Below are positions 6,361 through 36,087 of a stretch of DNA of 62,037 nucleotides, one piece after another (position 1 is the stretch's first letter; every line of letters starts with the position of its first letter). Origin of the DNA: a virus (Duplodnaviria; Caudoviricetes). The translations under genes and the position numbers were made by a program. Below the pieces are notes generated by a model. It saw only the letters and a list, made by a program, of their open reading frames with translations, had not been told where the DNA came from and ran no database searches. The DNA is taken from positions 1-62,037 of the IMG/VR virus record IMGVR_UViG_3300021475_000012; one strand, given 5' to 3'.

Positions 6361-7659
6361 ATGACCTTGAACTACCACCGATGCCACAGCACAGACTGCG
6401 AGGGCAAGCATCCCGCGAAGACATTTACGAGCGAAACGGAAGAACATGTGAAGGGCTGGAAGCGATGCCACTGCCCCATCGTCGCCAGCGGCACTCTCAA
6501 TCGCGTGGCCAAGCGCAAGGCCACCAAGCAAACCGAATGGGCCGCAGCTGCGGAGGTGATGGTTCCCTACATCGTGGCCAAATCCTGGGTTCTTCCAGAA
6601 GACGAGCCGCCCACTCCACCGGCCCCCAAGGCACCCGTACCACCTCCCCAGACTCCCGCGCCCGCCTCTGATAAAGTCACCGTCAAAGCAGCAACTGAGG
6701 AGTACATCAAGGAACACCAAAAAGCGGAATCGGCACCGACTACGCTCGATGGACACCGGCAACGAATGGCATCGATCTGCAAGTTCGCGGAAGAAACCGG
6801 CTGGCTCTACCTGACCGATTGGGACGCCAAAATCGCCAACCAATACCTGAATCAATTTCGAGTCGCCCCCATCACGGCACGCAAGTACCGAAAGATGGTG
6901 AAGGCATTTTTCGCGTGGTGCATCGCCAAGGAATGGATCGCAACCAACCCCGGCAAGGCCGTTGCCGTGATCAACAATCGCGCCACCAGCCTGCTGAAAG
7001 TGGGGAAGGAAAGGCAACCTCTTGTCGATGCGGAACTGGAACGCATGTATCAGGGATGCCTGCGATACGACGCCCTGTTCCCGGTGCGCAAATGGAGAGG
7101 AGAGGATCTGGCGGATTTCATCGCTCTCTCCGTTCACACCGGCCTGCGAATTTCGGATGTCGCCACCTTCAATATCAACCGGTTGAAAGGCGCGGATGAG
7201 GTCCGCATCCGCACGCTGAAGAGAGGCAAGATGGTCTACACCGTTGTGCCGCCCTGGTTGGCAGAACGCATCCGCATTCGGGCAGAGAAGTTTGGCCCAC
7301 TGATTTTCGGTGCTCATCGTTCCACCAAACTTGACGTCATCACCCACTGCTGGCGGATGCGGTTGAACGAACTCTGGAAGCAATGCGGCTCCTGGGAGAT
7401 CAAGCCTACGCCGCACCGCTTCCGGCATACCTTCTGTCGCATTCTGCTGGAAAGCGGCAGATCCTACGCCGATGTCGCGGACCTGACCGGCGACACAGAA
7501 GCCGTAATCCGGGAACACTACGCATCCTGGGTACCGGGACGGCAAGAACGGGTCTCTAAACTGCTGCGCGAATCCTTCGCGGATGTGCCGGTCCCGGCAT
7601 ACGCCAGATCAAACAAGCCTGCCAGAGTGATCGAGATGGTCAAAGTTAAACGCGGATAG
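6361..7659 (+). CDS. int: Tyrosine integrase
   Basis: HTGLRISD, K, HRFRHTF, LTGD...HY catalytic motifs; N-terminal H/C-rich arm domain (HRCHSTDC...CHCP). Confidence 0.93.
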   Translation: MTLNYHRCHSTDCEGKHPAKTFTSETEEHVKGWKRCHCPIVASGTLNRVAKRKATKQTEWAAAAEVMVPYIVAKSWVLPEDEPPTPPAPKAPVPPPQTPAPASDKVTVKAATEEYIKEHQKAESAPTTLDGHRQRMASICKFAEETGWLYLTDWDAKIANQYLNQFRVAPITARKYRKMVKAFFAWCIAKEWIATNPGKAVAVINNRATSLLKVGKERQPLVDAELERMYQGCLRYDALFPVRKWRGEDLADFIALSVHTGLRISDVATFNINRLKGADEVRIRTLKRGKMVYTVVPPWLAERIRIRAEKFGPLIFGAHRSTKLDVITHCWRMRLNELWKQCGSWEIKPTPHRFRHTFCRILLESGRSYADVADLTGDTEAVIREHYASWVPGRQERVSKLLRESFADVPVPAYARSNKPARVIEMVKVKRG

Positions 7660-10511: not shown

Positions 10512-10913
10512 TTACGATGCAATCGAAGCGACTTTGCTGCGCGAGTGGGCAAGAAGACGCATACAGCGGTCGGTGAGTTCGCCTTCATGCTGGCGCTCGT
10601 TCAAAGAGGCTTCGTTGTACGTGCGGAGTTCTTCCTCGCCGGATTTGGTGAGGACGACTTCGGCTTTCTCGCCGGTTCCCTTCTTGACGATCCAGCCGTT
10701 GTAAGCGATAGAGCCAAGAGTATTGGCGTGAGCGTTACGCAGGTACTCGATGGTGACGTGGTTCTGAGCAATGAAGCGCAAGGTGCCGTACTGGTGACGG
10801 CTGAGATTGCGCAAGGGATTCTTCATCATTTCTGACATTCGTTGAGGTTCTCCTTTGTTGATCGATTGAATTCGGTTCTTCATCTGTCGGACGGTCATGG
10901 TTCGAGTCTTCAT
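10512..10913 (-). CDS. Hypothetical protein (possible wHTH)
   Basis: ORF track; GWI...VVLTKSGEE. Confidence 0.6.
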   Translation of the reverse strand: MKTRTMTVRQMKNRIQSINKGEPQRMSEMMKNPLRNLSRHQYGTLRFIAQNHVTIEYLRNAHANTLGSIAYNGWIVKKGTGEKAEVVLTKSGEEELRTYNEASLNERQHEGELTDRCMRLLAHSRSKVASIAS

Positions 10914-13106: not shown

Positions 13107-15269
13107 TTAGAGGTAAGCGCCCATGTTCCACAAGGTGGCCTGGATTCCAAGGTTGATCGCGGAGGTCCAGACGGTGGTGGGGAGCAGGGCTTGGCGGTAG
13201 GAGTTGCCCATGTTCACGCCGGTTCCCTTGGCCGGGGAAGTGGGCTGCAGGGATAGGTCCGGGGTGATGGTGGAGGTGAATAAGGGATCGGCGGTGATGC
13301 CGTTCAGCATCAGGCCAGCGGCCTGCACCTGGGCCAGGGTCATGGAGGTGGAAGTCCCGGCCTGATACATGACCTGGGTGCCGTTGGGGACGACGTCGCA
13401 GTAGTCGAAGGTGGAGAAGACGGTCTTGGCGGTGCGGACCTGGACGGGGTGGGTCCAGACCCCGGCAATGATGTTGTTAATCAGGTTGATATTGCCCACG
13501 TTGGTGTCGAGCGACTGGATGCCGAAGCCCTGGGAAGAGGTCCCGGTGCCGTTATAGATGGTGTTGCCGATGATCGTAATACCCTGGGTGTCCCAGACCG
13601 GGATGCCTACATTGACGCTGTAGATCACGTTGTAAGTGATGTAAAGGTTGCTGTTCTGAGTCTGGAAGGTGCCGTAACTGATGGCGTCGATCCCGCCCAT
13701 CACGCAATCGTGGATGCAGTTGTAAGAAGCGATGCAGTTCAGAGTGTTCTCATGGGTGATGCCGATTCCGGCGCAGTTATAGATCAGATTGCCGTAGGTC
13801 TGGCCGTTGGGGATCTGGATGTTCGCGCCGTCCAGGTTGATGCCCATGCCCTGGTTATCGGTGCCCGCAATAATATCGTGAACCGTGTTGTAGCGGCTCC
13901 ACGCCGCGCTGGCACCGTTCAGAATCCAGATGCCGCGATCCGCGAAATGGGACACCGTGTTCAGTTCGATTAAGGCGTTGGTGTTCAGCTGGCCGCGAAT
14001 GATGATGCCGCCCAGGGGAGGGTTCGAGTTGGCGGTCCCGTCGAGCACGTTGTTGTGGACGGTGGTGTTCGGGCCGGAGAGATAGAAGGCTGCGTTGCTG
14101 GCGCAGTTCTGGATGGTCCAGTTCGGGACGGCGAGAAGGTCTGCGGCCCAGTAGTTGTGGTAGATCGTGGCCAGGGTGTTGATGCCAGAGATGGTGCCAG
14201 AAGCGCGGAGGTCCAGGCTATCGATAGTCCAGAAGCCCATGTTGGGGGCGGTGACGGTGATCGCGGGGTTGTTGGGGGCTGCGGAGATGATCGGCTTCGC
14301 GCCGGAGCCGTAAGCGGAGAGGGTAATCTGGCCGGTAGAGTCCCCGCCGATGTGGACGGTGAGAGTGGTATTCAGCCAGGAGTCCCCGCGATTCAAGAGG
14401 ATGCTATCGCCGGGGATCAGGGGAATGGCGGCGGGGATGCCGGTAGCGCTATTCATGCCGGGGGCGTGGGCCCAGCTGTGCGCGGAGTCCAGGCCGGTGT
14501 TGGCGTCACTCCCGGCGTTACTGACATAGAACTGGGTCGGGGCGCGGCTTCCGCTGGAGGTGGTGCGCTTCAGGGCTAACAGGTAGGCAAGCCAAGTCTG
14601 GGAACTCGAATAAGAAGCGGTGGCGGCATAGGGGCCAACGGCGGTTACGTTGCGATCCTCCAGGCCGCGATGGGAGGTAGAGGCGTTGTTCACCTCCAGG
14701 ACATAGCCCGCGCCGGGGCTCAGGGTGCCGCCGCCGGAAGAGGTCACAAAGAGACCGCCCACCAGGAGATCGTTCGCATTGGTGGTGGTGAGATTGCCGC
14801 TGTTGAGGGCCGCGCTTACTGCGTTGGCGGCGACTTCTCCATCGATCACCGCAGAGGTGGCCAAGCCCTGGTATTCGGCAAAGATCACGATGGAATTGAT
14901 CGCTGCGGAGAAAGTGACGGTTACGCCGGTCCCGGCGGCACCCGTGATCTGGGCGGTATAGCACCAGATAAGACGGGTTGCGCCCGTGATGGGGGAAAGA
15001 GGGGTAGGGGTCAGGGTGCCCGAAGTGCCGCCGTTCCAGGCAATGTTGGTGATGGTGGTGCTGGCGTCAGTGGCGTTGAAGATCAGCAGGACGAGCAGGT
15101 TGCCGGGGGTGACATGGGTGGTGAAGGCTTGTGAGTTGGTGGTCGAGCCGCCGGAGCCGCCAGAGGTGCCGGATTGAACGGGGGGAGCGCCGGAGGGGGC
15201 GACAACCACTGACCCGGAGGAAAGGCCGGGACCGAAGCCGGGAACGAACCCCCACCCGTAGAAAGGCAT
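13107..15269 (-). CDS. Right-handed beta-helix (pectin lyase-like) protein, putative depolymerase/tailspike
   Basis: FYVSNAGSDANTG...PGDSILLNRGDSW cap, Asn-ladder PbH1-like repeats, ADPLF...LQPTSPA end. Confidence 0.75.
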   Translation of the reverse strand: MPFYGWGFVPGFGPGLSSGSVVVAPSGAPPVQSGTSGGSGGSTTNSQAFTTHVTPGNLLVLLIFNATDASTTITNIAWNGGTSGTLTPTPLSPITGATRLIWCYTAQITGAAGTGVTVTFSAAINSIVIFAEYQGLATSAVIDGEVAANAVSAALNSGNLTTTNANDLLVGGLFVTSSGGGTLSPGAGYVLEVNNASTSHRGLEDRNVTAVGPYAATASYSSSQTWLAYLLALKRTTSSGSRAPTQFYVSNAGSDANTGLDSAHSWAHAPGMNSATGIPAAIPLIPGDSILLNRGDSWLNTTLTVHIGGDSTGQITLSAYGSGAKPIISAAPNNPAITVTAPNMGFWTIDSLDLRASGTISGINTLATIYHNYWAADLLAVPNWTIQNCASNAAFYLSGPNTTVHNNVLDGTANSNPPLGGIIIRGQLNTNALIELNTVSHFADRGIWILNGASAAWSRYNTVHDIIAGTDNQGMGINLDGANIQIPNGQTYGNLIYNCAGIGITHENTLNCIASYNCIHDCVMGGIDAISYGTFQTQNSNLYITYNVIYSVNVGIPVWDTQGITIIGNTIYNGTGTSSQGFGIQSLDTNVGNINLINNIIAGVWTHPVQVRTAKTVFSTFDYCDVVPNGTQVMYQAGTSTSMTLAQVQAAGLMLNGITADPLFTSTITPDLSLQPTSPAKGTGVNMGNSYRQALLPTTVWTSAINLGIQATLWNMGAYL

Positions 15270-16299: not shown

Positions 16300-16662
16300 T
16301 TACTGGGCTCCAGAATCCGATTTAAGACAAGCTAGGACGTGGTTATGGCCGGTTAGAGCCTGTTCCCAGGTGGTATAGCGGGCAAGGATCTCGCAGCCCT
16401 CGATCTTGCGAAAGAAAGCGGTTTCAAAGAGCAGCGGCGGATGCTGTTTCACCGGTAGATTCATCGCCAGGGCGTGATGGTTGTGATCCATGCCAAGGAA
16501 GATGGTCGAGAGCCGCCAGCCAGGGCCCTCGTCTTCGGCTATGTGCCGTTCGCTCCCCAGGATCTGGCTGAACATCATCGCGCATTCCTGGTAACTGCCG
16601 GTGCAAGGGACGGCAACGTGGCCCTCCAGCCGGTAGAACCGGGGGCGCTTGTGTTTTCCCAT
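16300..16662 (-). CDS. Hypothetical phage protein
   Basis: STIFLGMDH...PLLFETAFF...RYTTWEQALTGH. Confidence 0.7.
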   Translation of the reverse strand: MGKHKRPRFYRLEGHVAVPCTGSYQECAMMFSQILGSERHIAEDEGPGWRLSTIFLGMDHNHHALAMNLPVKQHPPLLFETAFFRKIEGCEILARYTTWEQALTGHNHVLACLKSDSGAQ

Positions 16663-19014: not shown

Positions 19015-19252
19015 GTTAGACTTACCCCAACTTAGATTGTAACCACTTACTTTTTTCTTTTTTGGGGTGTATACGGAATCAGCCCCGCGCCTCGCGGGGG
19101 TAGGGCACCCCCCCTGGACAATTCCGCTAAGTCCTTTAGAATCCACCGATGATAATGCACATTATCATCTCGCGCTTGGTAACCATCCGGGAGTAACCTG
19201 GGACTCAAAGCAAATGGGTTAGACTCTAACTCCGATTGCAGCGGTGATGGAT

Positions 19253-19286
19253 GCGGATGTGGAGGCGGATGTGGAGGCGGATGTGG
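19253..19286. repeat. 12-bp tandem repeat GCGGATGTGGAG x about 3
   Basis: Read directly, in the 540-bp intergenic region. Confidence 0.8.
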
Positions 19287-19553
19287 TTTGTTATCAGCAC
19301 TATGGGAGTGGTCATAAGAAAAGCTTATGGGCCATAAGGGGAGCTTATTGCATGGGTTCGGGGCTATCTCTTTCCCTTTGTTTCCAACCACTTAACATTC
19401 TCACTCCCCAGTCAACGTTAACTGGAATATTCCTCACTACTATATGTAACGTTTTCCCCGATGTAACGTCTTATCTATTCCGCCGTTACTTGACGCGGAA
19501 ATAGCAAGGTGACTTACTCACCTTGACTCCATGACCTAAGGACACTTACCGCA

Positions 19554-20330
19554 ATGAAACGCATTGCCTCAGCTGCTAAGACTCGTCTACCGAAACTCTC
19601 CCAGGGCTATATTCTGTATGAGAACGATTCCATCGTAGTCATCGCCACGGGTATCACCCGCAAATCCACCAACAAAAAGACGGGCGCAATGATCCAGATC
19701 TACATCCTGGTACGGCATACGCACCCCGTCGAAGCCGTTAAGTTAGGGCTGGATCGCGCTATCTGCATTGACTGTATCCACATGGGTACCGAAGGGTTTA
19801 AAGAGCGCAGTTGCTATGTGGACATGAAAGGGCCCATAGCCGTATGGGAAGCGTACCAGCGCGGATCGTACCCCCACATCACAGAGGAACTGTACGCCCG
19901 CGTGTTCACTAACAGGGCCGTCCGTTTCGGCACCTACGGGGAGCCATGCTTGATTCCCCTGGGTATCATTCGCCGCATTGTGCGCGTCTGCAATCGCCAT
20001 AGCGGCTATACGCACCAGTGGGCTAACGGAATTGACGGCGAGTACCTGCAGTACCTCATGGCATCCTGTGACCGTCCCGGTGACGCGGACAAGGCGCATG
20101 CCCTGGGATTCCGTACGTTCCGCGTGGAACCTACTCACGGTGTATCGCCTCTCCCAGGTGAGATCATTTGCCCGTCAGAGTCGCGTGGGCATAACTGCGT
20201 CGACTGTAAGCTCTGTAACGGCGCTGTATCAGGCGCGAAGTCGGTCATGATCACGGTACATGGCGCGGGCGCAAGGCATCTCCAAACCAAGCTAGATCGC
20301 CTCATTCAAATCGAGGGATTCGCCGCCTAA
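19554..20330 (+). CDS. Cys-rich phage protein, possibly Fe-S binding (Gp88/radical-SAM-like)
   Basis: NKKTG, CIDC...CY, VRFGTYGEP, GYTHQW, MASCD, CP...CVDCKLC, HG. Confidence 0.65.
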   Translation: MKRIASAAKTRLPKLSQGYILYENDSIVVIATGITRKSTNKKTGAMIQIYILVRHTHPVEAVKLGLDRAICIDCIHMGTEGFKERSCYVDMKGPIAVWEAYQRGSYPHITEELYARVFTNRAVRFGTYGEPCLIPLGIIRRIVRVCNRHSGYTHQWANGIDGEYLQYLMASCDRPGDADKAHALGFRTFRVEPTHGVSPLPGEIICPSESRGHNCVDCKLCNGAVSGAKSVMITVHGAGARHLQTKLDRLIQIEGFAA

Positions 20331-20334
20331 CTCC

Positions 20335-20357
20335 TGGGGGAGTAACTTACTCCCCCA
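20335..20357. promoter_or_regulatory. Perfect 11-bp inverted repeat TGGGGGAGTAA-C-TTACTCCCCCA
   Basis: Directly after the stop of 19554..20330. Confidence 0.6.
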
Positions 20358-20393
20358 TAACTTACCTAACTTATCGACTAAGGACACATACCA

Positions 20394-20570
20394 ATGAAAC
20401 TGACAAGAGAAGAAACCAAGAAACGCGCCGCCCTGATTGCTTCCGTTATTCCAGGGTCAACAGTAGTAGCGAACGCCTGGAATATCACGGTTGTTACCCG
20501 TGGCGGCAAACACGTTGCCATATGGGTTGGGCGTAAAGATGGATTCACCAAAGTGGAGTGGGCACGCTAA
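20394..20570 (+). CDS. 58-aa hypothetical protein
   Basis: Read by hand (MKLTREETKK...); leader motif upstream. Confidence 0.65.
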   Translation: MKLTREETKKRAALIASVIPGSTVVANAWNITVVTRGGKHVAIWVGRKDGFTKVEWAR

Positions 20571-20782
20571 TGAAAAAGCAATACCGCATTCAACGTAGCG
20601 ACTATCTGGGTATCGTTACCCGCGCCTTTGGGGGCAGATGTGCTTCCTGGTCCCCGTGGCGCACTGTGATAGCCCGCGATCATGAGGAAGACGCTACGGC
20701 GCTGTATGACGCATGGTCCCGTAAGGGACTCACCCGCTGGCGGCTGATGTATGGCAAGGAAGTTATCCGCAAGAGTGAATAA
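20570..20782 (+). CDS. Hypothetical protein
   Basis: TAATG coupling. Confidence 0.6.
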   Translation: MKKQYRIQRSDYLGIVTRAFGGRCASWSPWRTVIARDHEEDATALYDAWSRKGLTRWRLMYGKEVIRKSE

Positions 20783-20919
20783 TCGACAAAGGACACCCAC
20801 AATGCACACATTGGATCTCACCCAATACGACGTCACGGTGTGACTAATAGCCCACTAGGAGCCCACCTATACGGAGGGCTCCCGTGGGGGCTGTTAGCCC
20901 TCATATCGAAAGGACACTT

Positions 20920-21144
20920 ATGACATACGTAATCAGACTGATCAACGACAACTCGATGCAAACGCTGTACAGCGGCAATTCCGCTAAAGCCGCCCAGAAG
21001 GCCGTGGATATGGCACGCGGCATCCTGATCATCTCCGGCGGCACTGCTGGCATCTATGGGCACGTTTGGGGCAAGACCGCCCTGTTGTGGGAAGTGAACG
21101 ACGGCCAAGCCACATGCCCCGAAGGGACCAGCCCGCTGGCATGA
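20920..21144 (+). CDS. Hypothetical protein
   Basis: Leader motif; MTYVIRL... Confidence 0.7.
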   Translation: MTYVIRLINDNSMQTLYSGNSAKAAQKAVDMARGILIISGGTAGIYGHVWGKTALLWEVNDGQATCPEGTSPLA

Positions 21145-21243
21145 TAGAACTGATTGAAGTCCTGGGCTTTGTCGCGCTAATGATCGTAATCTATATCGGA
21201 AAGAGAAAAGGATTGTGGAAGTAAGTAATCGAAAGGACATCTT

Positions 21244-21504
21244 ATGGCATACGTAAAGCAAACCAACGGCACGATTCGCGAAGTACTCAACCTGGGCTGG
21301 ATCTTGCGCCACTGGCAACATGTGGAACGCCTGGAATGGATCTCCGGCCCTGGGGGCTGGAATAACACCTTCCGCGCTTACCTGAAGGATGGACGCGAGT
21401 ACGTCACCGACTACGCTTGCTTCGAAGTCTGGAAGGGCTTTATCAATCGCCCCGTGTTTCGCGGGCTACCAGCCACGGTCGACGGCATCACCGGACGCAT
21501 CTAA
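21244..21504 (+). CDS. Hypothetical protein
   Basis: Leader motif. Confidence 0.75.
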   Translation: MAYVKQTNGTIREVLNLGWILRHWQHVERLEWISGPGGWNNTFRAYLKDGREYVTDYACFEVWKGFINRPVFRGLPATVDGITGRI

Positions 21505-21530
21505 CATCAATCGAAAAGGACACTAATACC

Positions 21531-21962
21531 ATGCAAACGACGATCAATAAGAACCTCCTGCAGTACGCGGTCCAGACCGCTATCGCTTGCCCCCGTTGCG
21601 CGAAAGTGCTCGACATGCGCCAAGCGGTTACCACTACCCTGACCGTGCCGGATAACGGCACGCGCCAATTCACCATGTGCTGCGCCTGTTGGGACAAGGT
21701 GCGCCTGGAACTCCATGACCTTGCCATCGGCATCAAGGGCAACCTTGACGTCTTAGATGGCCGCGACTTATTCCCTCCCACCTTGGCCGAAGCTAAGCGC
21801 ATCGTGAAGGCCATGGGGATGACCCTCCGCTATGATCGCGAGTACCAGGAGTACAGCGTCAACTATCCCGGCGGCAAAGAGGCTACCCGCTGCTACACCA
21901 ATGACATCCTCGATGCCATCGGGACCGCTAAGGCCATGGCCAAGGCAAAGGGAGGCAAGTAA
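21531..21962 (+). CDS. Zn-finger hypothetical protein (CPRC...CACW)
   Basis: Leader motif. Confidence 0.7.
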   Translation: MQTTINKNLLQYAVQTAIACPRCAKVLDMRQAVTTTLTVPDNGTRQFTMCCACWDKVRLELHDLAIGIKGNLDVLDGRDLFPPTLAEAKRIVKAMGMTLRYDREYQEYSVNYPGGKEATRCYTNDILDAIGTAKAMAKAKGGK

Positions 21963-21963
21963 G

Positions 21964-22668
21964 ATGCAGCTTCTCCGCAATAAGACGAGCAACCGCTACT
22001 GCGGGCCGAATGCCCTGGCCCTGCTCACCGGCCAGCATGTGGACGATGTGACCCGCATGCTGCGCATGGTATCCGGCAGGCCCGCGATCAAGGGCACGCA
22101 TAACCGGCATATGTTAGCCGTCCTGGAGCGCCTGGGCTTTAGCGCATTGCCGGTCCCCCTGGGGGCCGGTGCCGATACCCGGAAGGGCAAGCGCACCTCC
22201 TGCCCTACCCTGGCGAAGGCCCTGCGCACCGTTCTCAAGGACCGCCAAGCCTCTCAACGGTTCCTGGTAGTGGTTGGGCACCACTACGTGTGCATCCAGG
22301 GCCGGAAGGTCTGGGATTACCGCGACTACCCGGAAGGGGAGTTCCTGGGCTCCTGTAAGCTGCGGCGGTGCCGCGTCACCGGCATCTGGGCAGTGAGCCT
22401 GAAGGGGGACCAGCCGGTCCCCCCACCGGCCAAGCCCGCCTCTACCGCGATGCAACGCGCCCGCTTCATTCCGGCCATTGAGAAGCTGGGCCTGGAAGTG
22501 GACGCCGATGTGGTTGATGCCCCCAGGGGCTTTGTGTTCAGCGGCACGGGCAACCATTGCCGCGCCATCACCGGCACTTATGCCGAAGCCCTGGAAGATA
22601 TCCAGAGCATTCTGCCCCTGGTGCCTTGCACAGATCCCGATTGCGACATGTGCCAGGAGGAGAACTAA
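21964..22668 (+). CDS. Putative papain-fold (C39-like) cysteine peptidase
   Basis: YCGPNALA helix-start Cys and GHHYV...WD. Confidence 0.5.
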   Translation: MQLLRNKTSNRYCGPNALALLTGQHVDDVTRMLRMVSGRPAIKGTHNRHMLAVLERLGFSALPVPLGAGADTRKGKRTSCPTLAKALRTVLKDRQASQRFLVVVGHHYVCIQGRKVWDYRDYPEGEFLGSCKLRRCRVTGIWAVSLKGDQPVPPPAKPASTAMQRARFIPAIEKLGLEVDADVVDAPRGFVFSGTGNHCRAITGTYAEALEDIQSILPLVPCTDPDCDMCQEEN

Positions 22669-22669
22669 C

Positions 22670-23092
22670 ATGACGGTATATCACTGCACCTGGACACGGC
22701 TGGTTGACCGCATTTATAAGCAAGGCCTGCGCACTATGCAGGCTTCCAACTGGAAGATAGCCTCTAATGGCACCCGCTACGGGAGTGGGGCTATCTTCGC
22801 CTTCGCCAGTAAGTGGGACGCCATCCGTTGGGCGGCTAAGATGGACTGGCAGTTCTATGGGCGGCACGCCACGGGAGAGGTCACCATTCTCACCCTGGAA
22901 CATGAGGGCCCCTGGATTACCGATGACGCGGACCCGCTTACCCAGGCGCAATGCGAGGGCCCCTGGCTCAAGACATATCATCATATTCCCGGAGCCGCGA
23001 TCACCGATGCGGATCTGTTGACGCAGGATATGGTCAAAGCCCTGGTCAAGCGCGTCAATCAGCCCCAGTTAGCTAGAATCGAAGGCAAGTAA
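22670..23092 (+). CDS. Putative ADP-ribosyltransferase-fold protein
   Basis: VYHCT....I...GL and GAIFAF motifs. Confidence 0.45.
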   Translation: MTVYHCTWTRLVDRIYKQGLRTMQASNWKIASNGTRYGSGAIFAFASKWDAIRWAAKMDWQFYGRHATGEVTILTLEHEGPWITDDADPLTQAQCEGPWLKTYHHIPGAAITDADLLTQDMVKALVKRVNQPQLARIEGK

Positions 23093-23114
23093 TCTCAATC
23101 GAAAAGGACACCTT

Positions 23115-23474
23115 ATGACAACGAACATTAAAGAGCAGGTATTTCCCAAGAGCAGTCTCTTCTCCCCCGGCAACGGGCGCGACTATCTCAAGACCCCCGA
23201 AGGCGAGATCTTCTCCATCAATGGCCTGTACTGCGACAAGGACGGCAACCAGGACCGTTGGGGAAGCTATACCAAAGTCATCGACATCCGCTGGACGGTA
23301 GTCATCTGGCAGGACTGCTATGTGGGCCTGAATCCCGATTACAGCTATAAGACAGAGCGCCGTCTGGTATTCACAGGCGATAACCGGGATGAGGAGATCC
23401 TGGCACGCTACGGCTACCGGATGGAACGTGACGCGGAAGGCTACAAGAACGTATTCCCCCTGGAGGTCAAGTAA
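23115..23474 (+). CDS. Hypothetical protein
   Basis: Leader motif. Confidence 0.75.
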   Translation: MTTNIKEQVFPKSSLFSPGNGRDYLKTPEGEIFSINGLYCDKDGNQDRWGSYTKVIDIRWTVVIWQDCYVGLNPDYSYKTERRLVFTGDNRDEEILARYGYRMERDAEGYKNVFPLEVK

Positions 23475-23477
23475 GTT

Positions 23478-23753
23478 ATGCCGCGCTTTGTGGTGGGGAC
23501 CGGCCAGCGTTGCCCTATGACAGAGCACTTGAAGATCGCCCTGGTAGCCAAGCGCGTGAACTGGCTGGTCTACCTGGGTTACCAGGGCATCCTCATCACC
23601 GATAAGGAAAGCGGTTGGAAGTGCATTGCCAATGGCAAGGTAACCGCAGAGCAGCTAACTAAGGCTCTGCATGCGGATGAGGTAAGCATCGCCCATCTGC
23701 TGAAGCGTAGAGAGTACCAGAAGAAACAATATCGAAAGGACAAAGAACGATGA
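23478..23753 (+). CDS. Hypothetical protein
   Basis: ORF track. Confidence 0.55.
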   Translation: MPRFVVGTGQRCPMTEHLKIALVAKRVNWLVYLGYQGILITDKESGWKCIANGKVTAEQLTKALHADEVSIAHLLKRREYQKKQYRKDKER

Positions 23754-24004
23754 TATTCCCCACAATCCACCTGAACGGCACTAATCCCCAGGACCTCCTG
23801 GAAGACCAGCTGCACATGATCGATAAGTTACGGGACGCCATCCGCGCCATGGAGCACAACGGCCCCAATGGCCGGGACTACTATCCCCAGGGCTCCCAGG
23901 CGTTCCAGCATGCCGTGGAGGAGCACGAGCAGCGGCTCCTGGTATTGCGCAACGTCCTGGCTGAGCTAGAGACGATTGCGGAACATGTGGCGAAGCACGT
24001 TTAA
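23750..24004 (+). CDS. Hypothetical phage protein (PTIHLNGT...PNGRDYYPQG)
   Basis: Leader motif. Confidence 0.75.
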   Translation: MIFPTIHLNGTNPQDLLEDQLHMIDKLRDAIRAMEHNGPNGRDYYPQGSQAFQHAVEEHEQRLLVLRNVLAELETIAEHVAKHV

Positions 24005-24026
24005 TCGAAAGGACACCATAAGCAAC

Positions 24027-24164
24027 ATGACGCGCAAACAACTGATCGAGGAAGTCCAGAAGCTGCGGAGGAAGGGTGACCCTCTGGTCCCCTTCGATAA
24101 AGCGGAGCTAGAACAACGCCTGAAGGAATACCAGGAGAGGGAGAAAGCTAAGCCACGGGCCTAA
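24027..24164 (+). CDS. 45-aa hypothetical protein
   Basis: Leader motif. Confidence 0.6.
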   Translation: MTRKQLIEEVQKLRRKGDPLVPFDKAELEQRLKEYQEREKAKPRA

Positions 24165-24235
24165 GGGCACCCTGGATCGGGCTCCCATGCCGGAGCCCCT
24201 TCCAGGCTATCCTTAGCCTATATCGAAAGGACACT

Positions 24236-24499
24236 ATGACATACAACGTAACGATCACTGATAGCGGTGCCCGCGTGTCGAGCACCATCGAAGCCGCCGA
24301 TATCGAAGCCGCTTGCGAGTTGATGGAGAAGTCCATGAAGGAAGCGGAGCAAGTCACCGCCGGGAATCCTGGTTGTGAGCCGCGCACCGAATGGATTTGC
24401 TTTGTCCTCGCTGGTTACTACGCTGAGTGCAGTCTGCGCTCCGAAGGCGAACAGGACGCCGCTTGCTGGACTAAGGTCACCATCGAGGAGGTCCGGTAA
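24236..24499 (+). CDS. Hypothetical protein
   Basis: Leader motif. Confidence 0.7.
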   Translation: MTYNVTITDSGARVSSTIEAADIEAACELMEKSMKEAEQVTAGNPGCEPRTEWICFVLAGYYAECSLRSEGEQDAACWTKVTIEEVR

Positions 24500-25011
24500 T
24501 GGGCACTGACGTCACCATGCGTTGCCGCCATTGCGGCTCGACTCGCAAGGAACATACCAAGCACAAGCCTTACCTCTGCCCCACGCGCCTCAGGGACACC
24601 TCCTGGGAGCCGTGGAGCGCCGAAGGATACGAAGCCGCTGTAGAGGCTGGCAAGACCGCTGTGAACCCTGCTAAAGCCGCCCCGGAAATGGAGGATGGTA
24701 TCGTTCTGGAGCCTGATTACCACTTCCTGTTCCGGCGCTTCCTGGAGGACGCCAAGAACGCCGGGGCCAGCCTCGATCTGGACCTCGCCGCCGCCCATTC
24801 CGATGGACGTCAGAGCGTCGATGAACACCTGGGCAACCATGCCAAGGTGCTGCGCGTGGTACAGGGCCTGATCGCGCCCTTGACTATCTGCCTGCAATCA
24901 GCCACTAGCGCAAGCGAGGTCCAGCAGCTGCGCGAAGTGATGGCGAAGACCCTGGAGAAACTGGATCAGGACGCGACTAAGACTGAAGCCCGCTTCTGGA
25001 GGGATATCTAA
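24499..25011 (+). CDS. Hypothetical protein with N-terminal CRHC..H..C
   Basis: ORF track, TAATG coupling. Confidence 0.7.
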   Translation: MGTDVTMRCRHCGSTRKEHTKHKPYLCPTRLRDTSWEPWSAEGYEAAVEAGKTAVNPAKAAPEMEDGIVLEPDYHFLFRRFLEDAKNAGASLDLDLAAAHSDGRQSVDEHLGNHAKVLRVVQGLIAPLTICLQSATSASEVQQLREVMAKTLEKLDQDATKTEARFWRDI

Positions 25012-25271
25012 TGGCCGGTTCGAAGGTACAAACTCGCGCTATTACGCTTACCCCAGGTTCCCCGGATGAACCTATCCGGCAGGTCCTGGCCATCCGCTCA
25101 AAAATCGGATATGCATGTACCATCCTGGAGGACAACTGCCCCACGTATGCCTTTAAAACTGGCCGTATGGGGCTGTTGAGCCTTGTGCGCTACCTGATCG
25201 AGGTGCTTAAACCAACTGCCGATGAGCGTGCATTCATCGAAAAGGGCTATATGCAGAAGGAGGGTCAGTAG
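25011..25271 (+). CDS. Hypothetical protein
   Basis: ORF track. Confidence 0.65.
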   Translation: MAGSKVQTRAITLTPGSPDEPIRQVLAIRSKIGYACTILEDNCPTYAFKTGRMGLLSLVRYLIEVLKPTADERAFIEKGYMQKEGQ

Positions 25272-25272
25272 G

Positions 25273-25479
25273 ATGGCCGGTTCGAAGACGCGCAGTATCC
25301 GCATTGTCGCCGCTGTAGCGTGTCCTGAGTGTGGTGCCCTGGCGGGGGAGCCCTGCAAGAACCGGGAGCCCCATCGCGCCAACCTGGGGCCGGAAGACCG
25401 CCGGGGGGTGCCTATCCGGCCCCACAACCTGCGGCGGATGGCCTGGATCGAATGGAAGCAGCAGAACGGAATCATCTAA
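25273..25479 (+). CDS. Zn-finger protein (CPECGAxxGEPC...PH)
   Basis: Start adjusted to MAGSKTR. Confidence 0.65.
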   Translation: MAGSKTRSIRIVAAVACPECGALAGEPCKNREPHRANLGPEDRRGVPIRPHNLRRMAWIEWKQQNGII

Positions 25480-25502
25480 CTAGAATAGAGAGAAGAGGAC
25501 TT

Positions 25503-26555
25503 ATGACTAAACAAACCAGCACTACCCAGAACCAGCTGGTCCCCATGCCGGGACTGCCCAAGAGCGTAAGCGCAGCCGATGCCCTGGTGGAGATGGCCTT
25601 AGCTACTTGCACCAGCGACAACACCCGCCGCGTTTACCGGCTGCGGCTCCGCTACTATCTCGCTTCCCAATTACCCTTCAACCGGGAAGGGGTCGCTGCG
25701 CACTTGGCGCAGCTGCGCCAGGAGGGAAAGGGCGAGTGCGTCACCATGCTGGCCATGGCGGCGATCAAGAAACTCGCCAAGGAAGCTGAGATCCGCCACC
25801 TGATCTCCTATGACGAGTACCGCCAGATCACCGACTTATCCGGCGGCAAGGTGCAACGCCAGAAGACGGGCATGTGGCTCACCGTTAGCGAAGTCGAAGA
25901 CCTCCTGGCCCTGCCTGACCGCACGACTTACTACGGCAAGCGCGATGCCGCCATCCTCTGCGCCCTGGTGGGCACCGGCCTGCGCCGGGATGAGCTACTT
26001 CACCTGAACTGGGACCAGTACCAGTCCCGCGAGGGCCGGATGTGCCTTGTGAACGTGAAGGGCAAGGGAGGGAAGCTGCGCACTGTGCCCGTGCCCCTCT
26101 GGGCCCAGCCGGATATCGACGTCTGGCAAGTCACCATCCAGACCCAGGAGCCGCCCCCGGCTCCCGGCGCTCTGGAAGCCGCCAATCTCATCAGGCGGGA
26201 GCGGCACCCCTTGAACTCCAAACGCTTCTGCGGGCGCTTGGGCTCGACGCGCCTCGCGGAGATCGTCATCGGCTACGGCCAGCGGATCGGCATCGACCTC
26301 CGGCCCCATGACCTCAGGCGCACCCTGGCGAAGATGATGCACCGTGCCGGTGCCGGGATCGAGCAGATTCAGTTCACCCTGGGGCACCAGCACATGCAAA
26401 CCACCACCATCTACCTGGGCTCCCTGCTCGAAATCGCCCCCGGCCAAGCAGGCGTGGACAAGGTCCAGATCGCCATCAACCGCAAGCTGCGCACCAAGGT
26501 AGTCGAGATGGACCGGCTGGACTCCCACCTCGCCGCCGCCGGGGGGAAGGCATGA
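25503..26555 (+). CDS. Second tyrosine recombinase (XerC/D-like)
   Basis: RDAAIL..LVGTGLRRDE, KGKGGKLR, HDLRRT, LGH...TTTIY; start at 25503 after GAGGA. Confidence 0.92.
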   Translation: MTKQTSTTQNQLVPMPGLPKSVSAADALVEMALATCTSDNTRRVYRLRLRYYLASQLPFNREGVAAHLAQLRQEGKGECVTMLAMAAIKKLAKEAEIRHLISYDEYRQITDLSGGKVQRQKTGMWLTVSEVEDLLALPDRTTYYGKRDAAILCALVGTGLRRDELLHLNWDQYQSREGRMCLVNVKGKGGKLRTVPVPLWAQPDIDVWQVTIQTQEPPPAPGALEAANLIRRERHPLNSKRFCGRLGSTRLAEIVIGYGQRIGIDLRPHDLRRTLAKMMHRAGAGIEQIQFTLGHQHMQTTTIYLGSLLEIAPGQAGVDKVQIAINRKLRTKVVEMDRLDSHLAAAGGKA

Positions 26556-26875
26556 CCTACTGGGATGCCCCCGGATTGAGCCAGGAAGCCCCAGGAGCTT
26601 CTCCCAGGGCCCCATTGGCCGGTAAGACACCCCCCAGGCGTTGCCAGGGCTGGAACGTCTTCAGCCGCGACTCCCTGCGCCCCCGCATGGCCTGCCGGTG
26701 CTGGGCCCGTCCCGGCTCCCCCTTTTGCCGCTACCACCAGCCCCCCGCGAGTGCGCAAGAGCCCCTCCGGGAGAGCGAGTACCCGCAAAGTGAGGCGGCT
26801 CCGCAGGAGCCGCCGGTACGCGGGGACGAGCGGGTGAGGGGGAGAGAAGCGGAAGGAGAACAGGGATGCCGGTGA
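26552..26875 (+). CDS. Hypothetical protein with C-C-C-H motif
   Basis: ATGA overlap; RCQG...CRC...FCRYH. Confidence 0.55.
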   Translation: MTYWDAPGLSQEAPGASPRAPLAGKTPPRRCQGWNVFSRDSLRPRMACRCWARPGSPFCRYHQPPASAQEPLRESEYPQSEAAPQEPPVRGDERVRGREAEGEQGCR

Positions 26876-27039
26876 AACAGCTGAAGTGGTGGGAAGGGGA
26901 GTTCCTCAGAGCCTGCGGTCTAGCCTGCTTGTATGGAGTGGAACTGAGTGTAGACCAGTTCTGTGCCAGCAGGGGCCTGGAGCCGGAAGATAGGGATCTC
27001 CTCTTGCCCTACCTGCGGAAACACTGTATAGCTGAGTAA
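26866..27039 (+). CDS. 57-aa hypothetical protein
   Basis: Read by hand (MPVKQLKWWEGEF...); AAGGAG SD. Confidence 0.55.
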   Translation: MPVKQLKWWEGEFLRACGLACLYGVELSVDQFCASRGLEPEDRDLLLPYLRKHCIAE

Positions 27040-27054
27040 CCTCGCAAACCCTAT

Positions 27055-27094
27055 GGGGGCAGAGCCAGTGATGCGGCTCCTGCCCCCTTTTTTT
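27055..27094 (+). terminator. Intrinsic terminator ending the rightward array
   Basis: GGGGGCAGAGCC-loop-GGCTCCTGCCCCC followed by T7. Confidence 0.85.
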
Positions 27095-27887: not shown

Positions 27888-28040
27888 GCGCCCCTGGCGG
27901 CGAATCCCTGATGATAATGCCGCTTGTCATCAAGACCCAAAGTTAGGTGCTTTGTTTCACAGTTTATAATTGTTCTTGCCTCCATCACGATAACTCTGAT
28001 ATCCTTCCGGGCAAATCCAACTCCCCAGGCTGGACCGGCT

Positions 28041-28406
28041 ATGCGTACTGTTCCTTTACCGGATCGCCCCTGGGGGCAGATGGAAGTCGCACCTGGAAGG
28101 TTTGCGCCCCAACGGACCAACGGGAAGCGCCTTGCAGGTTGGGAGGACCTGAACGTGACGCTCTTAGCGAACGAGATCGGAGTTTCCTTCCGGTACCTGC
28201 TAGGCGTCCTGCAAGGGCAGAGAAACTGCACCTTGGCTCTCCTCCAGCGAACCGCCCAGGCGCTAGGCGTCAGCCTTGTCGAGCTTATTACCCGGATCGA
28301 GCGTGCCTACCATCTGCGGGCCGCAGCCGTTCCCAAGAGTAAGAGCGAGATCCGGCGGCACCAAAGTGAGCGCAGGGCTTTGCAGTGGAACCGGCGCAGC
28401 ACGTAA
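28041..28406 (+). CDS. Cro/C1-type HTH regulator
   Basis: LLANEIGVSFRYLLGVLQGQRNCTLALLQRTAQALGVS. Confidence 0.75.
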   Translation: MRTVPLPDRPWGQMEVAPGRFAPQRTNGKRLAGWEDLNVTLLANEIGVSFRYLLGVLQGQRNCTLALLQRTAQALGVSLVELITRIERAYHLRAAAVPKSKSEIRRHQSERRALQWNRRST

Positions 28407-28412
28407 CCCGCT

Positions 28413-29423
28413 ATGCCAGAAAGCCAGCTATGCACGATGTTAAAACGATCTCGCGAGGATGAGCACGATCCAGACAAGCTGTACTTACTCCCCAATGAGT
28501 TCCGCATCGATAAGTTATGCAACGTAAGACCCTTCACCAGTCAACTCTCCGAAAGCGAGGATGAGGCGCTGATCAACCTCGCCCGCAGCATCGAGGAGAT
28601 CGGGCAAGTCGATGACGTGGTCATCACTGAAGGCCACATCATCATCAGCGGCCATCGGCGCGTCAAGGCATTCATCATCATCAACGAGAGGCGCAGCAAG
28701 AATTGCCGCCCCTTACTGCGTGTGCGGTGCCGCATCGACCGTGATCCCGGCGATCTCCGGCGCAAGGCCATCCAGGCTAACTTACAGCGCGATAACCTCA
28801 CCTTGATGGACCAGCTGTACATCATTCTCGACATGCGGCGGAAGCACCCGGAATGGCGCAACGTGGAGCCCATAGCCGATTACCTGGGGATCAGCGTGAG
28901 CAGCGTGCTGAATATCCTGAAGCTCAACAGCGCCTCGCTTCCCCTGCAGCATCAGATCCACGATGGCACCATCAGTTACTCCACCGCGCTTACCGTCATC
29001 CAGGAGACCGAAGACCCCAACCTGCAAGCCGAAATCATCAACAAGGCCAGGACCGCGCAGCTGGAGACCAACACCGAAAAGACCATCGCCCAGGCCGATG
29101 CCAAGAAGATCAGCAGGCGCAAAGCCATGCGCAAGCTGATCCACATGAAAGACGGGCTGAAGATAGAATCTCCGGCGGTCAAGCAGGTAATCCGCGAGAT
29201 GCATCTGGCGGATCGCAATGGTGACTTACAGCCTAAGACTTCGCCGCATACCAAGCGGGAGCGGGCGGAACTCCTGGAGGATCTCGCCACCCTGATCAAG
29301 AGCACCCTCCACCCGCCCCATAAGCACTTCCTCGATCACTTTGTCAATATTCATGCGGCTGGCGGCGGCACGGTGGAGGAGCTTCGCAAGCTCTGGCTGG
29401 TGGCCATCGGGCTTGTGAGCTAG
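28413..29423 (+). CDS. ParB/Srx-domain protein with HTH
   Basis: NVR, LARSIEEIG, IISGHRRVKA, ANLQRDNLT, IADYLGISVSSV. Confidence 0.85.
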   Translation: MPESQLCTMLKRSREDEHDPDKLYLLPNEFRIDKLCNVRPFTSQLSESEDEALINLARSIEEIGQVDDVVITEGHIIISGHRRVKAFIIINERRSKNCRPLLRVRCRIDRDPGDLRRKAIQANLQRDNLTLMDQLYIILDMRRKHPEWRNVEPIADYLGISVSSVLNILKLNSASLPLQHQIHDGTISYSTALTVIQETEDPNLQAEIINKARTAQLETNTEKTIAQADAKKISRRKAMRKLIHMKDGLKIESPAVKQVIREMHLADRNGDLQPKTSPHTKRERAELLEDLATLIKSTLHPPHKHFLDHFVNIHAAGGGTVEELRKLWLVAIGLVS

Positions 29424-35569: not shown

Positions 35570-35810
35570 GGTTCTGTTGATCGATACGGAAAGCAACTAC
35601 CGGCGTCCCATCCAGGCGTACTTCAACAGCATGGAACAGGTGGACGACTGGACCAGCAAGCTCTTGAAGGCCACTCCGGGGAAGGACGCCTGGGTGGAGA
35701 TCTACGAGTCGGTGGAGAGGGAAATCGGGCGCGTCAACAAGAAAGACTTGCCCCTGAAGAGCCGGAAGGAAGTGGAAGGCAGTGACCCGCTCCCAACACA
35801 GGGTGTATAA
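35556..35810 (+). CDS. Hypothetical protein
   Basis: ORF track. Confidence 0.6.
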   Translation: MLRYRVLLIDTESNYRRPIQAYFNSMEQVDDWTSKLLKATPGKDAWVEIYESVEREIGRVNKKDLPLKSRKEVEGSDPLPTQGV

Positions 35811-36087
35811 CCGGCTGCGCAAGAAGCAGGTAAACCATGTGATCGACGTGGTGGAAGTTACGGAACGCTATGCCGTGTTCCATGTACCCTTTCCTGGGCT
35901 GTACCTGACTTACGACACGGTGGGGAACCTGCTGCACACCGAAACCGAAGCGGAGCGCAAGGCCGGGAGCAGGCCGCTGTTCAAGCCGGGGCAACAGCCG
36001 GTGTTTACCGGCGAGATGGGAAGCGATACGCGGGGGCTGAATGAGAGAGAGCCCGCACCTGATTTGGATGATGATGTTCCTTTCTAG
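35782..36087 (+). CDS. Hypothetical protein with SSB-like acidic tail DDDVPF
   Basis: C-terminal LDDDVPF. Confidence 0.55.
   Translation: MTRSQHRVYNRLRKKQVNHVIDVVEVTERYAVFHVPFPGLYLTYDTVGNLLHTETEAERKAGSRPLFKPGQQPVFTGEMGSDTRGLNEREPAPDLDDDVPF

Follow-up and report, generated by a model that had tools for sequence, protein, structure and literature searches.

The genome of an uncultured soil phage (Duplodnaviria; Caudoviricetes), deposited as IMG/VR record IMGVR_UViG_3300021475_000012, carries ten copies of an asymmetric 13-nt leader motif, ATCGAAAGGACAC, each placed shortly ahead of an ATG in an array of small plus-strand genes. The whole record of 62,037 bp, with a completeness estimate of 95%, is referred to here as the window, and as G000 in comparisons with other genomes. 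We propose, with a probability of about 0.6, that these copies are translation leaders of one early operon, similar in kind to the start-associated sequences (SAS) of mycobacteriophages, in which a Shine-Dalgarno core would bind the ribosome and a factor of phage or host origin would probably recognise the flanks at the RNA level.

The proposed operon would begin with the non-coding region at 19.0-19.55 kb, close with the terminator at 27.06-27.09 kb and span roughly 7.6 kb. Where an ATG directly adjoins or overlaps the stop codon before it, the terminating ribosome would reach the gene and no leader would be present. At the remaining genes but one, the core (G)AAAGGA would act as the Shine-Dalgarno element, 4-13 nt before the ATG, between an invariant 5' flank (ATCGA) and an invariant 3' flank (CAC), the latter standing where the AAGGAG of the late genes has G residues. 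These flanks most likely form the recognition site of a trans-acting mRNA-binding factor, encoded by the phage or by its host, that would switch the whole early gene set on or off together.

Leader copies and the starts they precede

Scanning the window with ATCGA-N(0-3)-AAGGACA yielded nine matches, all on the plus strand between 20373 and 24233 (start positions in Table 1), versus a mean of 0.02 in shuffled sequences; none of 100 shuffles gave nine. A tenth, half copy at 19538, ahead of the first gene, has AAGGACAC and lacks ATCGA, and all ten copies fall within 4.7 kb. By itself, AAGGACA has 16 occurrences on the two strands of the window, where 5.9 ± 2.3 would be expected; 12 are on the plus strand, and 10 of these 12 lie in the array. 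The initial annotation had counted ten ATCGA(A/C)-type copies before ATGs, which resolve into nine full copies and the half copy, each 2-11 nt from its ATG. Its fixed-gap pattern (ATCGA, A/C, two nucleotides, AAGGACAC) finds no match when taken literally, even with two mismatches, because the spacer between ATCGA and AAGGACAC varies from 0 to 3 nt. Its statement that the full motif occurs nowhere else was borne out, in that no further copy with up to two mismatches exists on either strand of the window. The structural and packaging blocks (1-16.6 kb and 38.2-62 kb) contain no copy, and all copies lie at 19538-24234, among non-structural genes only.

The distance from AAGGACA to the ATG is 9, 7, 6, 3, 4, 8, 4, 7, 11 and 2 nt for the ten copies in order. 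Eight copies end in CAC, with CAT at 21233 and CAA at 23736 in the other two, and several copies share nucleotides with the preceding stop codon or are at most 5 nt away from it (TAATCGA at 20780 and 24002). The similarity at the starts extends into the first codons, as the initial annotation had observed: ATG-ACA-TAC is present at 20920 and 24236 as well as at 58650 of the relative G003, and ATG-GCA-TAC at 21244. The proteins with alike first codons have no detectable relation to one another (no paralogue pair at E<=1e-3). A candidate antisense or small-RNA partner was not found either, the best complements of the motif having at least three mismatches.

Classes of gene starts were read from the sequence, where a start more than 3 nt after the previous stop was termed uncoupled, and an ATG overlapping the previous stop or at most 3 nt from it was termed coupled. 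The leader stands at nine of ten uncoupled array genes, compared to one of eleven coupled ones (Fisher p=3.5e-4). The uncoupled gene without a full leader encodes the recombinase, and the sequence before it weakly resembles a decayed copy. By the same classes, the relative G001 has the leader at all seven uncoupled genes, two of the copies being degenerate, and at one of nine coupled genes. The motif is what a gene has when a terminating ribosome cannot reach it. Moreover, at 21 motif-led starts of three genomes, the region from -20 to +13 has a predicted mean unpaired probability of 0.61, higher than the 0.42 (sd 0.09) at 60 random internal positions.

At these 21 sites, which were picked by AAGGACA, a C follows AAGGA without exception, and CAC continues in 19. 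Genes outside the array use AAGGAG(A/G), with AAGGAGA ahead of eight ORF starts on the minus strand, whereas AAGGAC at working distance from a start is confined to the array. The AAGGA core agrees with the AAGGAG sites at the other genes of the phage, and ATCGA and CAC have no counterpart in these sites. The use of AAGGAG at the late genes shows that this form is read by the host. Nevertheless, the C is present at all 21 sites, and a plain Shine-Dalgarno site appears insufficient. Only (G)AAAGGA is able to pair with the canonical 16S tail. Pairing with this tail does not explain the flanks, although the tail of the actual host may differ. The flank variants are specific to each genome (ATCGA in G000 and G003; ATCA plus a trailing C in G001), as would be expected for co-evolution with a factor.

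Phage proteins that exert control at or near the ribosome-binding sites of early messages include those acting at T4 RegA sites, T4 RegB, which cleaves at GGAG, and Mu Com at its own site. They offer a model for the inferred action on the flanks, with no sequence or protein similarity to the present system. No RegA-, RegB- or Com-like gene was recognised, no dedicated test for them having been made.

The spacer of 0-3 nt fits flexible RNA recognition better than a rigid duplex DNA site, and together with the tie to uncoupled starts it is the reason why RNA is favoured over duplex DNA. The same features bear on the idea that the copies are DNA-level operators, at which a repressor would halt transcription of the early operon in a lysogen, as at the 13-bp stoperators of Cluster A phages such as L5. 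Stoperators are asymmetric, occur in many copies in short intergenic spaces and are oriented to transcription; they are found genome-wide, including the operator of the early promoter, are untied to the Shine-Dalgarno distance and act on DNA through the repressor. The present motif is likewise an asymmetric 13-nt site in a single orientation to transcription within short intergenic spaces, in a phage that has integrase-like genes (6361-7659 and 25503-26555) and a helix-turn-helix (HTH) protein (27924-28406). However, a roadblock site would need neither the Shine-Dalgarno distance nor the tracking of uncoupled starts, and its internal spacer would not be expected to vary. Unlike stoperators, the copies are restricted to 4.7 kb with none elsewhere on either strand, and no full copy sits at the promoter-like sites of 19015-19553 (none in 19015-19534). 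We consider a DNA operator quite improbable.

Gene replacement among relatives and the tyrosine recombinase

A capsid alignment retrieved a family of contigs of ~62-66 kb each, and six capsid-family relatives, whole or partial, were compared. G001 (amino acid identity of 85% for the capsid, 70-71% for the terminase and 78-79% for the portal) and G003 (capsid about 82%) show synteny with the window over their whole length. At the same place as in the window, G001 has eight copies of ATC(A/G)A(A)AGGACACC, of which two are degenerate and one precedes its recombinase, and G003 has five copies of the motif. The relatives G004 to G007 (capsid 72-78%) have no motif array. Among the 20 array genes of the window, four have a homologue in G001 (five by blastp) and three in G003, which agrees with the initial description of the array as unusually plastic. 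G001 shares gene 1, the genes starting at 21531 and 23750, and the recombinase (in addition to 26866 by blastp), and the G003 homologues are those of 21531, the recombinase and 26866. In the three genomes with the motif, shared genes occur in one and the same order, there are no within-genome paralogues, and orthologous array proteins of G000 and G003 are only 37-48% identical. The tag belongs to the phage lineage and not to the genes, which have been exchanged behind a retained tag in the relatives. The combination of an invariant gene order with simple 16S complementarity, named in the initial annotation as evidence that would speak against it, was not observed.

Among 117 stretches listed in an IMG/VR scan with the motif plus ATG, 112 had one copy by regular-expression count, and only G003 (four copies) and G001 (six copies) were exceptional. 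Searching IMG/VR with gene 1 alone or the recombinase alone gave no relatives, and an alignment of two recombinase sequences as query retrieved G001 only. With a gene 1 alignment as query, 160 loci at ~40% identity were retrieved from metagenome and viral contigs, and the motif was present at almost none of them.

The initial annotation had read the array as shufflable cassettes with their own XerC/D-like recombinase, that is, an integron-like system in which the protein encoded at 25503-26555 excises and inserts cassettes at the motif. In integrons, small genes on one strand, of unknown function and mostly lacking promoters, turn over rapidly close to a tyrosine recombinase; their attC sites are structured with imperfect inverted repeats, and the integrase lies at the array origin, divergent, next to attI and a promoter. 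The array resembles them in its small, same-strand, mostly orphan genes, in its hypervariable content among relatives and in having a tyrosine recombinase within the operon. One unit is nearly empty: the 13-codon ORF reported earlier behind one copy is present at 20802-20843, followed by a stem-loop of -36.8 kcal/mol.

The recombinase is genuine (Pfam Phage_integrase, E=8e-21) and is a generic member of that family, with candidate catalytic R, H, R, H and Y conserved in five orthologues. Its likeness to XerC/D is distant, the scores lying far below the cut-offs of the NCBIfam equivalogs (XerD 88.5 versus 329.6 bits; XerC 83.4 versus 335). The integron-integrase model TIGR02249 gives 35.8 bits against a cut-off of 265 and matches only about residues 266-306, and NF011946 gives 19.2 against 435. 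The core sites of tyrosine recombinases are composed of two inverted arms around a spacer, whereas the motif is without dyad symmetry, shorter than any such core site, variable in its spacer and placed at ribosome-binding distance. In contrast to integrons, there are no structured attC-like sites, since the unit is 13 nt and asymmetric and the hairpins, found at three of ten copies, are unrelated. The recombinase does not resemble IntI, and its location is also wrong for an integron, since it follows all copies, has their orientation and precedes the terminator; in G001 it is simply one of the motif-led genes. The distributions of recombinase and motif across relatives do not match, as orthologues are present without a motif array in G004 (39%), G006 (45%) and L289 (35%), and the order of the shared genes is unchanged. 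Altogether, the cassette system is extremely improbable.

Alternatively, the leader could be a passive linker or landing pad, namely an ordinary ribosome-binding site whose flanks are inherited through leader duplication, or through homologous or microhomology recombination between the leaders of co-infecting relatives, with no dedicated recombinase. The almost wholly different gene content behind a conserved tag in G000, G001 and G003 fits this idea, as do the similarity past the ATG to codons 2-3 in four unrelated genes of G000 and G003 and two paralogous ~85-nt leaders in G001. It is further favoured by L228 and L233, a pair of other phages with leaders of their own, the homology blocks of which end at their leader motif (7537/9989 and 14436/14537); one genome of this pair has extra ~90-nt leader copies flanking additional genes. 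However, the identity of 13 nt between G000 and G003, despite the low protein identity, would need selection on the sequence itself. Phage mosaic joints fall at gene boundaries anyway, so that joints at leaders are expected under any model, and the L228/L233 evidence concerns a different motif, with no close pair in the lineage of the window for mapping joints. A purely passive leader is unlikely in our judgement; the leaders may also be joints for gene exchange by ordinary recombination.

Several points weigh against translation leaders read by a factor. If the host 16S had an unusual tail complementary to ATCGAAAGGA, the 5' flank would amount only to a long Shine-Dalgarno site. A candidate factor did not emerge, and the four genes with the phyletic pattern of the tag (10512-10913, 16300-16662, 21531-21962 and 35782-36087), none with an informative family, are confounded by phylogeny. 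The motif is dispensable for this type of phage, because G004 to G007 do without it. The same first codons in unrelated genes (ATG-ACA-TAC) suggest that leaders were copied through duplication or recombination, and such copying could preserve the similarity of the flanks in the absence of a factor. A protein might still bind the DNA form of the site. Moreover, we infer the single transcript, the absence of internal promoters and translation itself.

The Zn-ribbon gene 21531-21962, present in exactly the three motif-bearing genomes, was considered as the factor and dropped, as its N-domain also occurs beside gene 1 homologues in unrelated loci free of motif arrays.

Layout of the proposed operon, RNA structures and genomic setting

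The features of the array and its surroundings are compiled in Table 1. The upstream non-coding region is likely the promoter and control region of the early operon. At 19238-19288 it contains about four tandem 12-nt units (GGATGTGGAGGC-like), which could be iteron-like or regulator-binding repeats. The blocks kept in G001 and G003 include CCCYTGGACAAT and GATAAT...ATTATC.

Table 1. Array features and their surroundings, in window coordinates.
Feature	Position	Strand	Remarks
Packaging and structural genes	1-16.6 kb and 38.2-62 kb	-	terminase, portal, major head, tail fibre
Plus-strand gene block	16.7-38.2 kb	+	
Non-coding region upstream of array	19015..19553	+	540 bp; sigma-70-like site, tandem repeats, blocks conserved in G001/G003
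Sigma-70-like site	19115-19142	+	in upstream non-coding region
Half leader copy 1	19538..19545	+	AAGGACAC, ATCGA missing; 9 nt ahead of gene 1 ATG
Gene 1	19554..20330	+	258 aa, Cys-rich; phrog_2554, very widespread phage family; weak DUF7227 match
Stem-loop without U tract	20335..20357	+	between gene 1 and copy 2; -18.2 kcal/mol, z -3.7
Leader copy 2	20373..20387	+	ATCGA-CT-AAGGACAC; ahead of 58-aa gene 20394-20570, then coupled gene 20570-20782
Leader copy 3	20782..20796	+	ATCGA-CA-AAGGACAC; overlaps TAA of preceding gene; ahead of 13-codon ORF 20802-20843
Large stem-loop after mini-ORF	20840..20904	+	3' part is a small hairpin with GCUGUUA loop, directly before copy 4
Leader copy 4	20905..20917	+	ahead of 74-aa gene 20920-21144, then coupled 27-aa membrane-like ORF 21141-21224
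Leader copy 5	21228..21240	+	CAT end; ahead of 86-aa gene 21244-21504
Leader copy 6	21510..21523	+	ahead of Zn-ribbon gene 21531-21962, then coupled genes 21964-22668 and 22670-23092
Leader copy 7	23098..23111	+	ahead of gene 23115-23474, then coupled gene 23478-23753
Leader copy 8	23731..23743	+	CAA end; within last codons of preceding gene; ahead of gene 23750-24004
Leader copy 9	24004..24016	+	overlaps TAA of preceding gene; ahead of 45-aa gene 24027-24164
Stem-loop without U tract	24161..24216	+	before copy 10; -36.5 kcal/mol, z -4.6
Leader copy 10	24222..24234	+	ahead of gene 24236-24499, then coupled 24499-25011, 25011-25271 and 25273-25479 (phage zinc finger)
Possible decayed leader	25482..25500	+	AGAATAGAGAGAAGAGGAC, before recombinase; weak, 74% to leader at 21492
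Tyrosine recombinase	25503..26555	+	350 aa, distantly XerC/D-like; next-to-last block of operon
Two small coupled genes	26552..27039	+	26552-26875 and 26866-27039; second conserved in G001 and G003
Intrinsic terminator	27055..27094	+	GC-rich stem and 7 T, -27.1 kcal/mol

Pfam and PHROGs named nothing among the array genes beyond gene 1, the zinc finger and the recombinase, and gene 21964-22668 matched only viral hypothetical clusters in a protein atlas. The family of gene 1 is very large, with 145 proteins at E<=1e-3 in one search, hundreds of loci and seven invariant cysteines. A Foldseek search with its confidently predicted structure (pLDDT 84) found no match in the PDB, and only weak radical-SAM-like rows (Z at most 4.5) were obtained.

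The coupled junctions are stereotyped as well. In the window they read GGAGGnnAAGTAA, 1-3 nt and ATG (21951-21966 and 23461-23480), and in G001 GG(A/G)GGnCnAGTAACCATG (13198, 13602 and 14758 of contig L081), so that unrelated proteins end in similar codons. They may represent a Shine-Dalgarno site in the tail of the upstream gene, although the numbers are small.

The only canonical plus-strand terminator is that at 27055-27094, which a consensus scan had not listed. The strong terminator noted in the initial annotation is therefore real, but it does not close the array directly, as it lies 500 bp past the recombinase with two small genes in between.

Three strong stem-loops that lack U tracts and are unrelated in sequence occur inside the array, each shortly ahead of a leader copy (three of ten copies). 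No common 17-nt repeat consensus was found upstream of the copies. Small hairpins with a conserved GCUGUUA loop and different stems lie 2-3 nt upstream of three copies, at 20886-20903 in the window and at 56652-56668 and 57026-57044 in G003; they could be a partner element like the extended SAS (ESAS) or a protein-binding loop. The two paralogous ~85-nt intergenic leaders of G001 (L081 10990-11076 and 11540-11627) contain two hairpins each and differ by one compensatory pair per hairpin (GGGCAT/ATGCCC versus GGGCAC/GTGCCC; CCGG/CCGG versus CCGA/TCGG). Such compensatory pairs argue for a selected RNA structure upstream of the tag.

These structures raise the possibility that each copy marks the 5' end of a transcript, either as a promoter for host RNA polymerase redirected by a phage factor or as a site of cleavage into monocistronic messages. 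The stable stem-loops upstream of three copies are compatible with it, as are the changed stems of the GCUGUUA-loop hairpins before one copy here and two in G003. In addition, the leaders of L228 and L233 contain type II hammerhead-like cores (Rfam RF02276, 35.4 and 31.8 bits, under the cut-off of 37; two further copies recognised by eye only), which suggests that intergenic RNA cleavage occurs in such arrays. However, there is no conservation upstream of the 13 nt, where -35 and -10 elements would sit, and among the scanned proteins none was recognised as an RNA polymerase or sigma factor. Rfam gave no match in the array at E<=1 and none in the G001 and G003 arrays at E<=0.1, and transcripts started at the motif would lose the Shine-Dalgarno context at copies with gaps of 2-4 nt. 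We give little credence to a promoter or processing site.

The contig of the source run is a circular permutation of the window, in which tRNA genes are absent and the G+C content is 0.54-0.62. A search of 50,697 deposited phage records matched the portal and capsid to only two podoviruses, both of Tunturiibacter (Acidobacteriota), at 25-27% identity; their genome organisation differs, and a motif of this type was not found in them. Pieces of the phage occur in four soil metagenome runs, and no RNA run is among the sequencing runs listed as containing it. No joint at a motif copy is listed in the sequencing runs either, of which X1 is probably the source and X2-X4 are short, low-depth pieces and thus uninformative. 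L001 is the same phage, its contig ending within gene 1. The closest relatives are known as proteins only, namely P0001 (99%; 10-kb contig) and P0002 (80%; 21-kb Logan contig), and two scans of genome contigs with capsid alignments found no prophage relatives.

Elsewhere in the genome, a second, larger integrase (432 aa) at 6361-7659 has a homologue in G001 only, and a conserved module of the HTH protein (27924-28406) and a ParB/Noc-like protein lies directly after the operon (27924-29423). Together with the operon recombinase, they hint at lysogenic or plasmid-like maintenance. A 720-aa right-handed beta-helix protein (13107-15269, minus strand), with a homologue in none of six relatives, is probably the tailspike, and its absence from the relatives fits a host-range cassette. 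The 'direct terminal repeats' of the G001, G004 and G006 records are exact overlaps of 127, 127 and 110 nt, that of G001 being intragenic. They are most likely overlaps of circular assembly and not physical genome ends; since they look assembly-derived, we do not place the array at a physical genome end.

Start-associated sequences and leaders in other phages

The initial annotation had offered as its alternative a translational element like mycobacteriophage start-associated sequences, and this alternative fits every testable feature. As far as the available excerpts of the published reports go, on which the comparisons below are based, start-associated sequences have been known since 2011 and only in actinobacteriophages (PMC3203893, PMC7302621, PMC12699233). 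The SAS of Cluster K mycobacteriophages, GGGATAGGAGCCC, is a 13-nt asymmetric sequence in 11-19 copies per genome (Pope et al. 2011, PMC3203893); a subset has an extended form, ESAS, with inverted repeats upstream (PMC3203893), and the function of SAS is still given as untested in the excerpt of a later report (PMC12699233). Pope et al. name stoperators as the contrasting case to SAS (PMC3203893).

The present motif, in ten copies, resembles the Cluster K SAS in being 13 nt, asymmetric and in one orientation, a few nucleotides ahead of mostly ATG starts, and at non-structural genes only (PMC3203893). Both consist of a Shine-Dalgarno-like core and conserved flanks, which in the Cluster K SAS cannot pair with 16S (PMC3203893) and here would not pair with a canonical tail. 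Both are conserved before unrelated genes across subgroups and missing in certain related ones (PMC3203893). Additional upstream elements with inverted repeats accompany part of the Cluster K copies (PMC3203893), to which the stem-loops at three of ten copies here may correspond. The sequence differs (ATCGAAAGGACAC versus GGGATAGGAGCCC), however, and the motif has no outer GGG/CCC arms, a variable spacer and a location in one contiguous operon (PMC3203893). The phages also differ, the window being from an uncultured soil phage whose only cultured structural relatives are the Acidobacteriota podoviruses. The upstream hairpins of the present lineage have compensatory stem changes, whereas the available text of Pope et al. 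reports no support for RNA pairing in ESAS (PMC3203893). Membership of the Cluster K SAS is defined by GGGATAGGAGCCC with up to two mismatches (PMC3203893, PMC12699233), and the motif falls outside this definition; it is thus analogous to the class without belonging to the Cluster K sequence family.

Phages of Microbacterium cluster EF have an SAS-like 13-nt motif, GGGAAAGGACCCC, in ten copies (Jacobs-Sera et al. 2020, PMC7302621). It is similar to the present one in its ribosome-binding position, in conservation far beyond the need of a ribosome-binding site, in the core GAAAGGAC and in weakly conserved upstream elements (PMC7302621). It differs in flanks, phages and hosts, and its function is equally unknown according to the excerpted report (PMC7302621).

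Homologues of gene 23750 in other metagenomic phages carry the leader of the phage in which they reside: CGAAAGGACA in L194, ATGGAGAT in L209, L219 and L207, and GGAGTCGA in L233. Stereotyped leaders of their own stand before 6-10 consecutive small genes in L209 (6947-10080), L194 (8127-10319), L166 (4839-8651), L240 (2386-13787), L219 and L207. The L209 leader is a ~30-nt repeat ending in ATGGAGATcgatATGACC, and the L194 leader reads CGAAAGGACA(A/C)GA(A/C)C. In L228 (7464-7526, 8165-8267 and 10377-10454) and L233 (9916-9977), repeated ~90-nt intergenic leaders, those with the hammerhead-like cores, end in GGAGTCGAA before the ATG; this lineage has a homologue of gene 23750, and its homology blocks stop at these leaders. 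Lineage-specific start tags thus seem common in such arrays.

A broader proposal would give the tag two roles, as the mRNA operator of a dedicated phage translational regulator that defines an early regulon, and as a portable landing pad for recombinase-free swapping of early, possibly anti-defence, genes between co-infecting relatives. In that case, lineage-specific tags of this kind (L194, L209, L228/L233, L166 and L240), some of them combined with self-cleaving ribozymes, would reflect a general principle by which hypervariable early regions are built. We put this forward tentatively, as possible but on the unlikely side.

The anatomy known from the start-associated sequences of actinobacteriophages is now found in an unrelated family of uncultured soil phages. 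As comparable leaders are present in this family and in other metagenomic phages, the tagging of early genes with a common leader is suggested to be a widespread phage strategy and not the peculiarity of one host group. The comparison of three genomes separates the conserved tag from the replaced genes, and thereby provides a basis for reporter tests and for a search for the factor. In addition, the tag is a practical marker for the most plastic part of the genome, which holds early and likely host-takeover genes.

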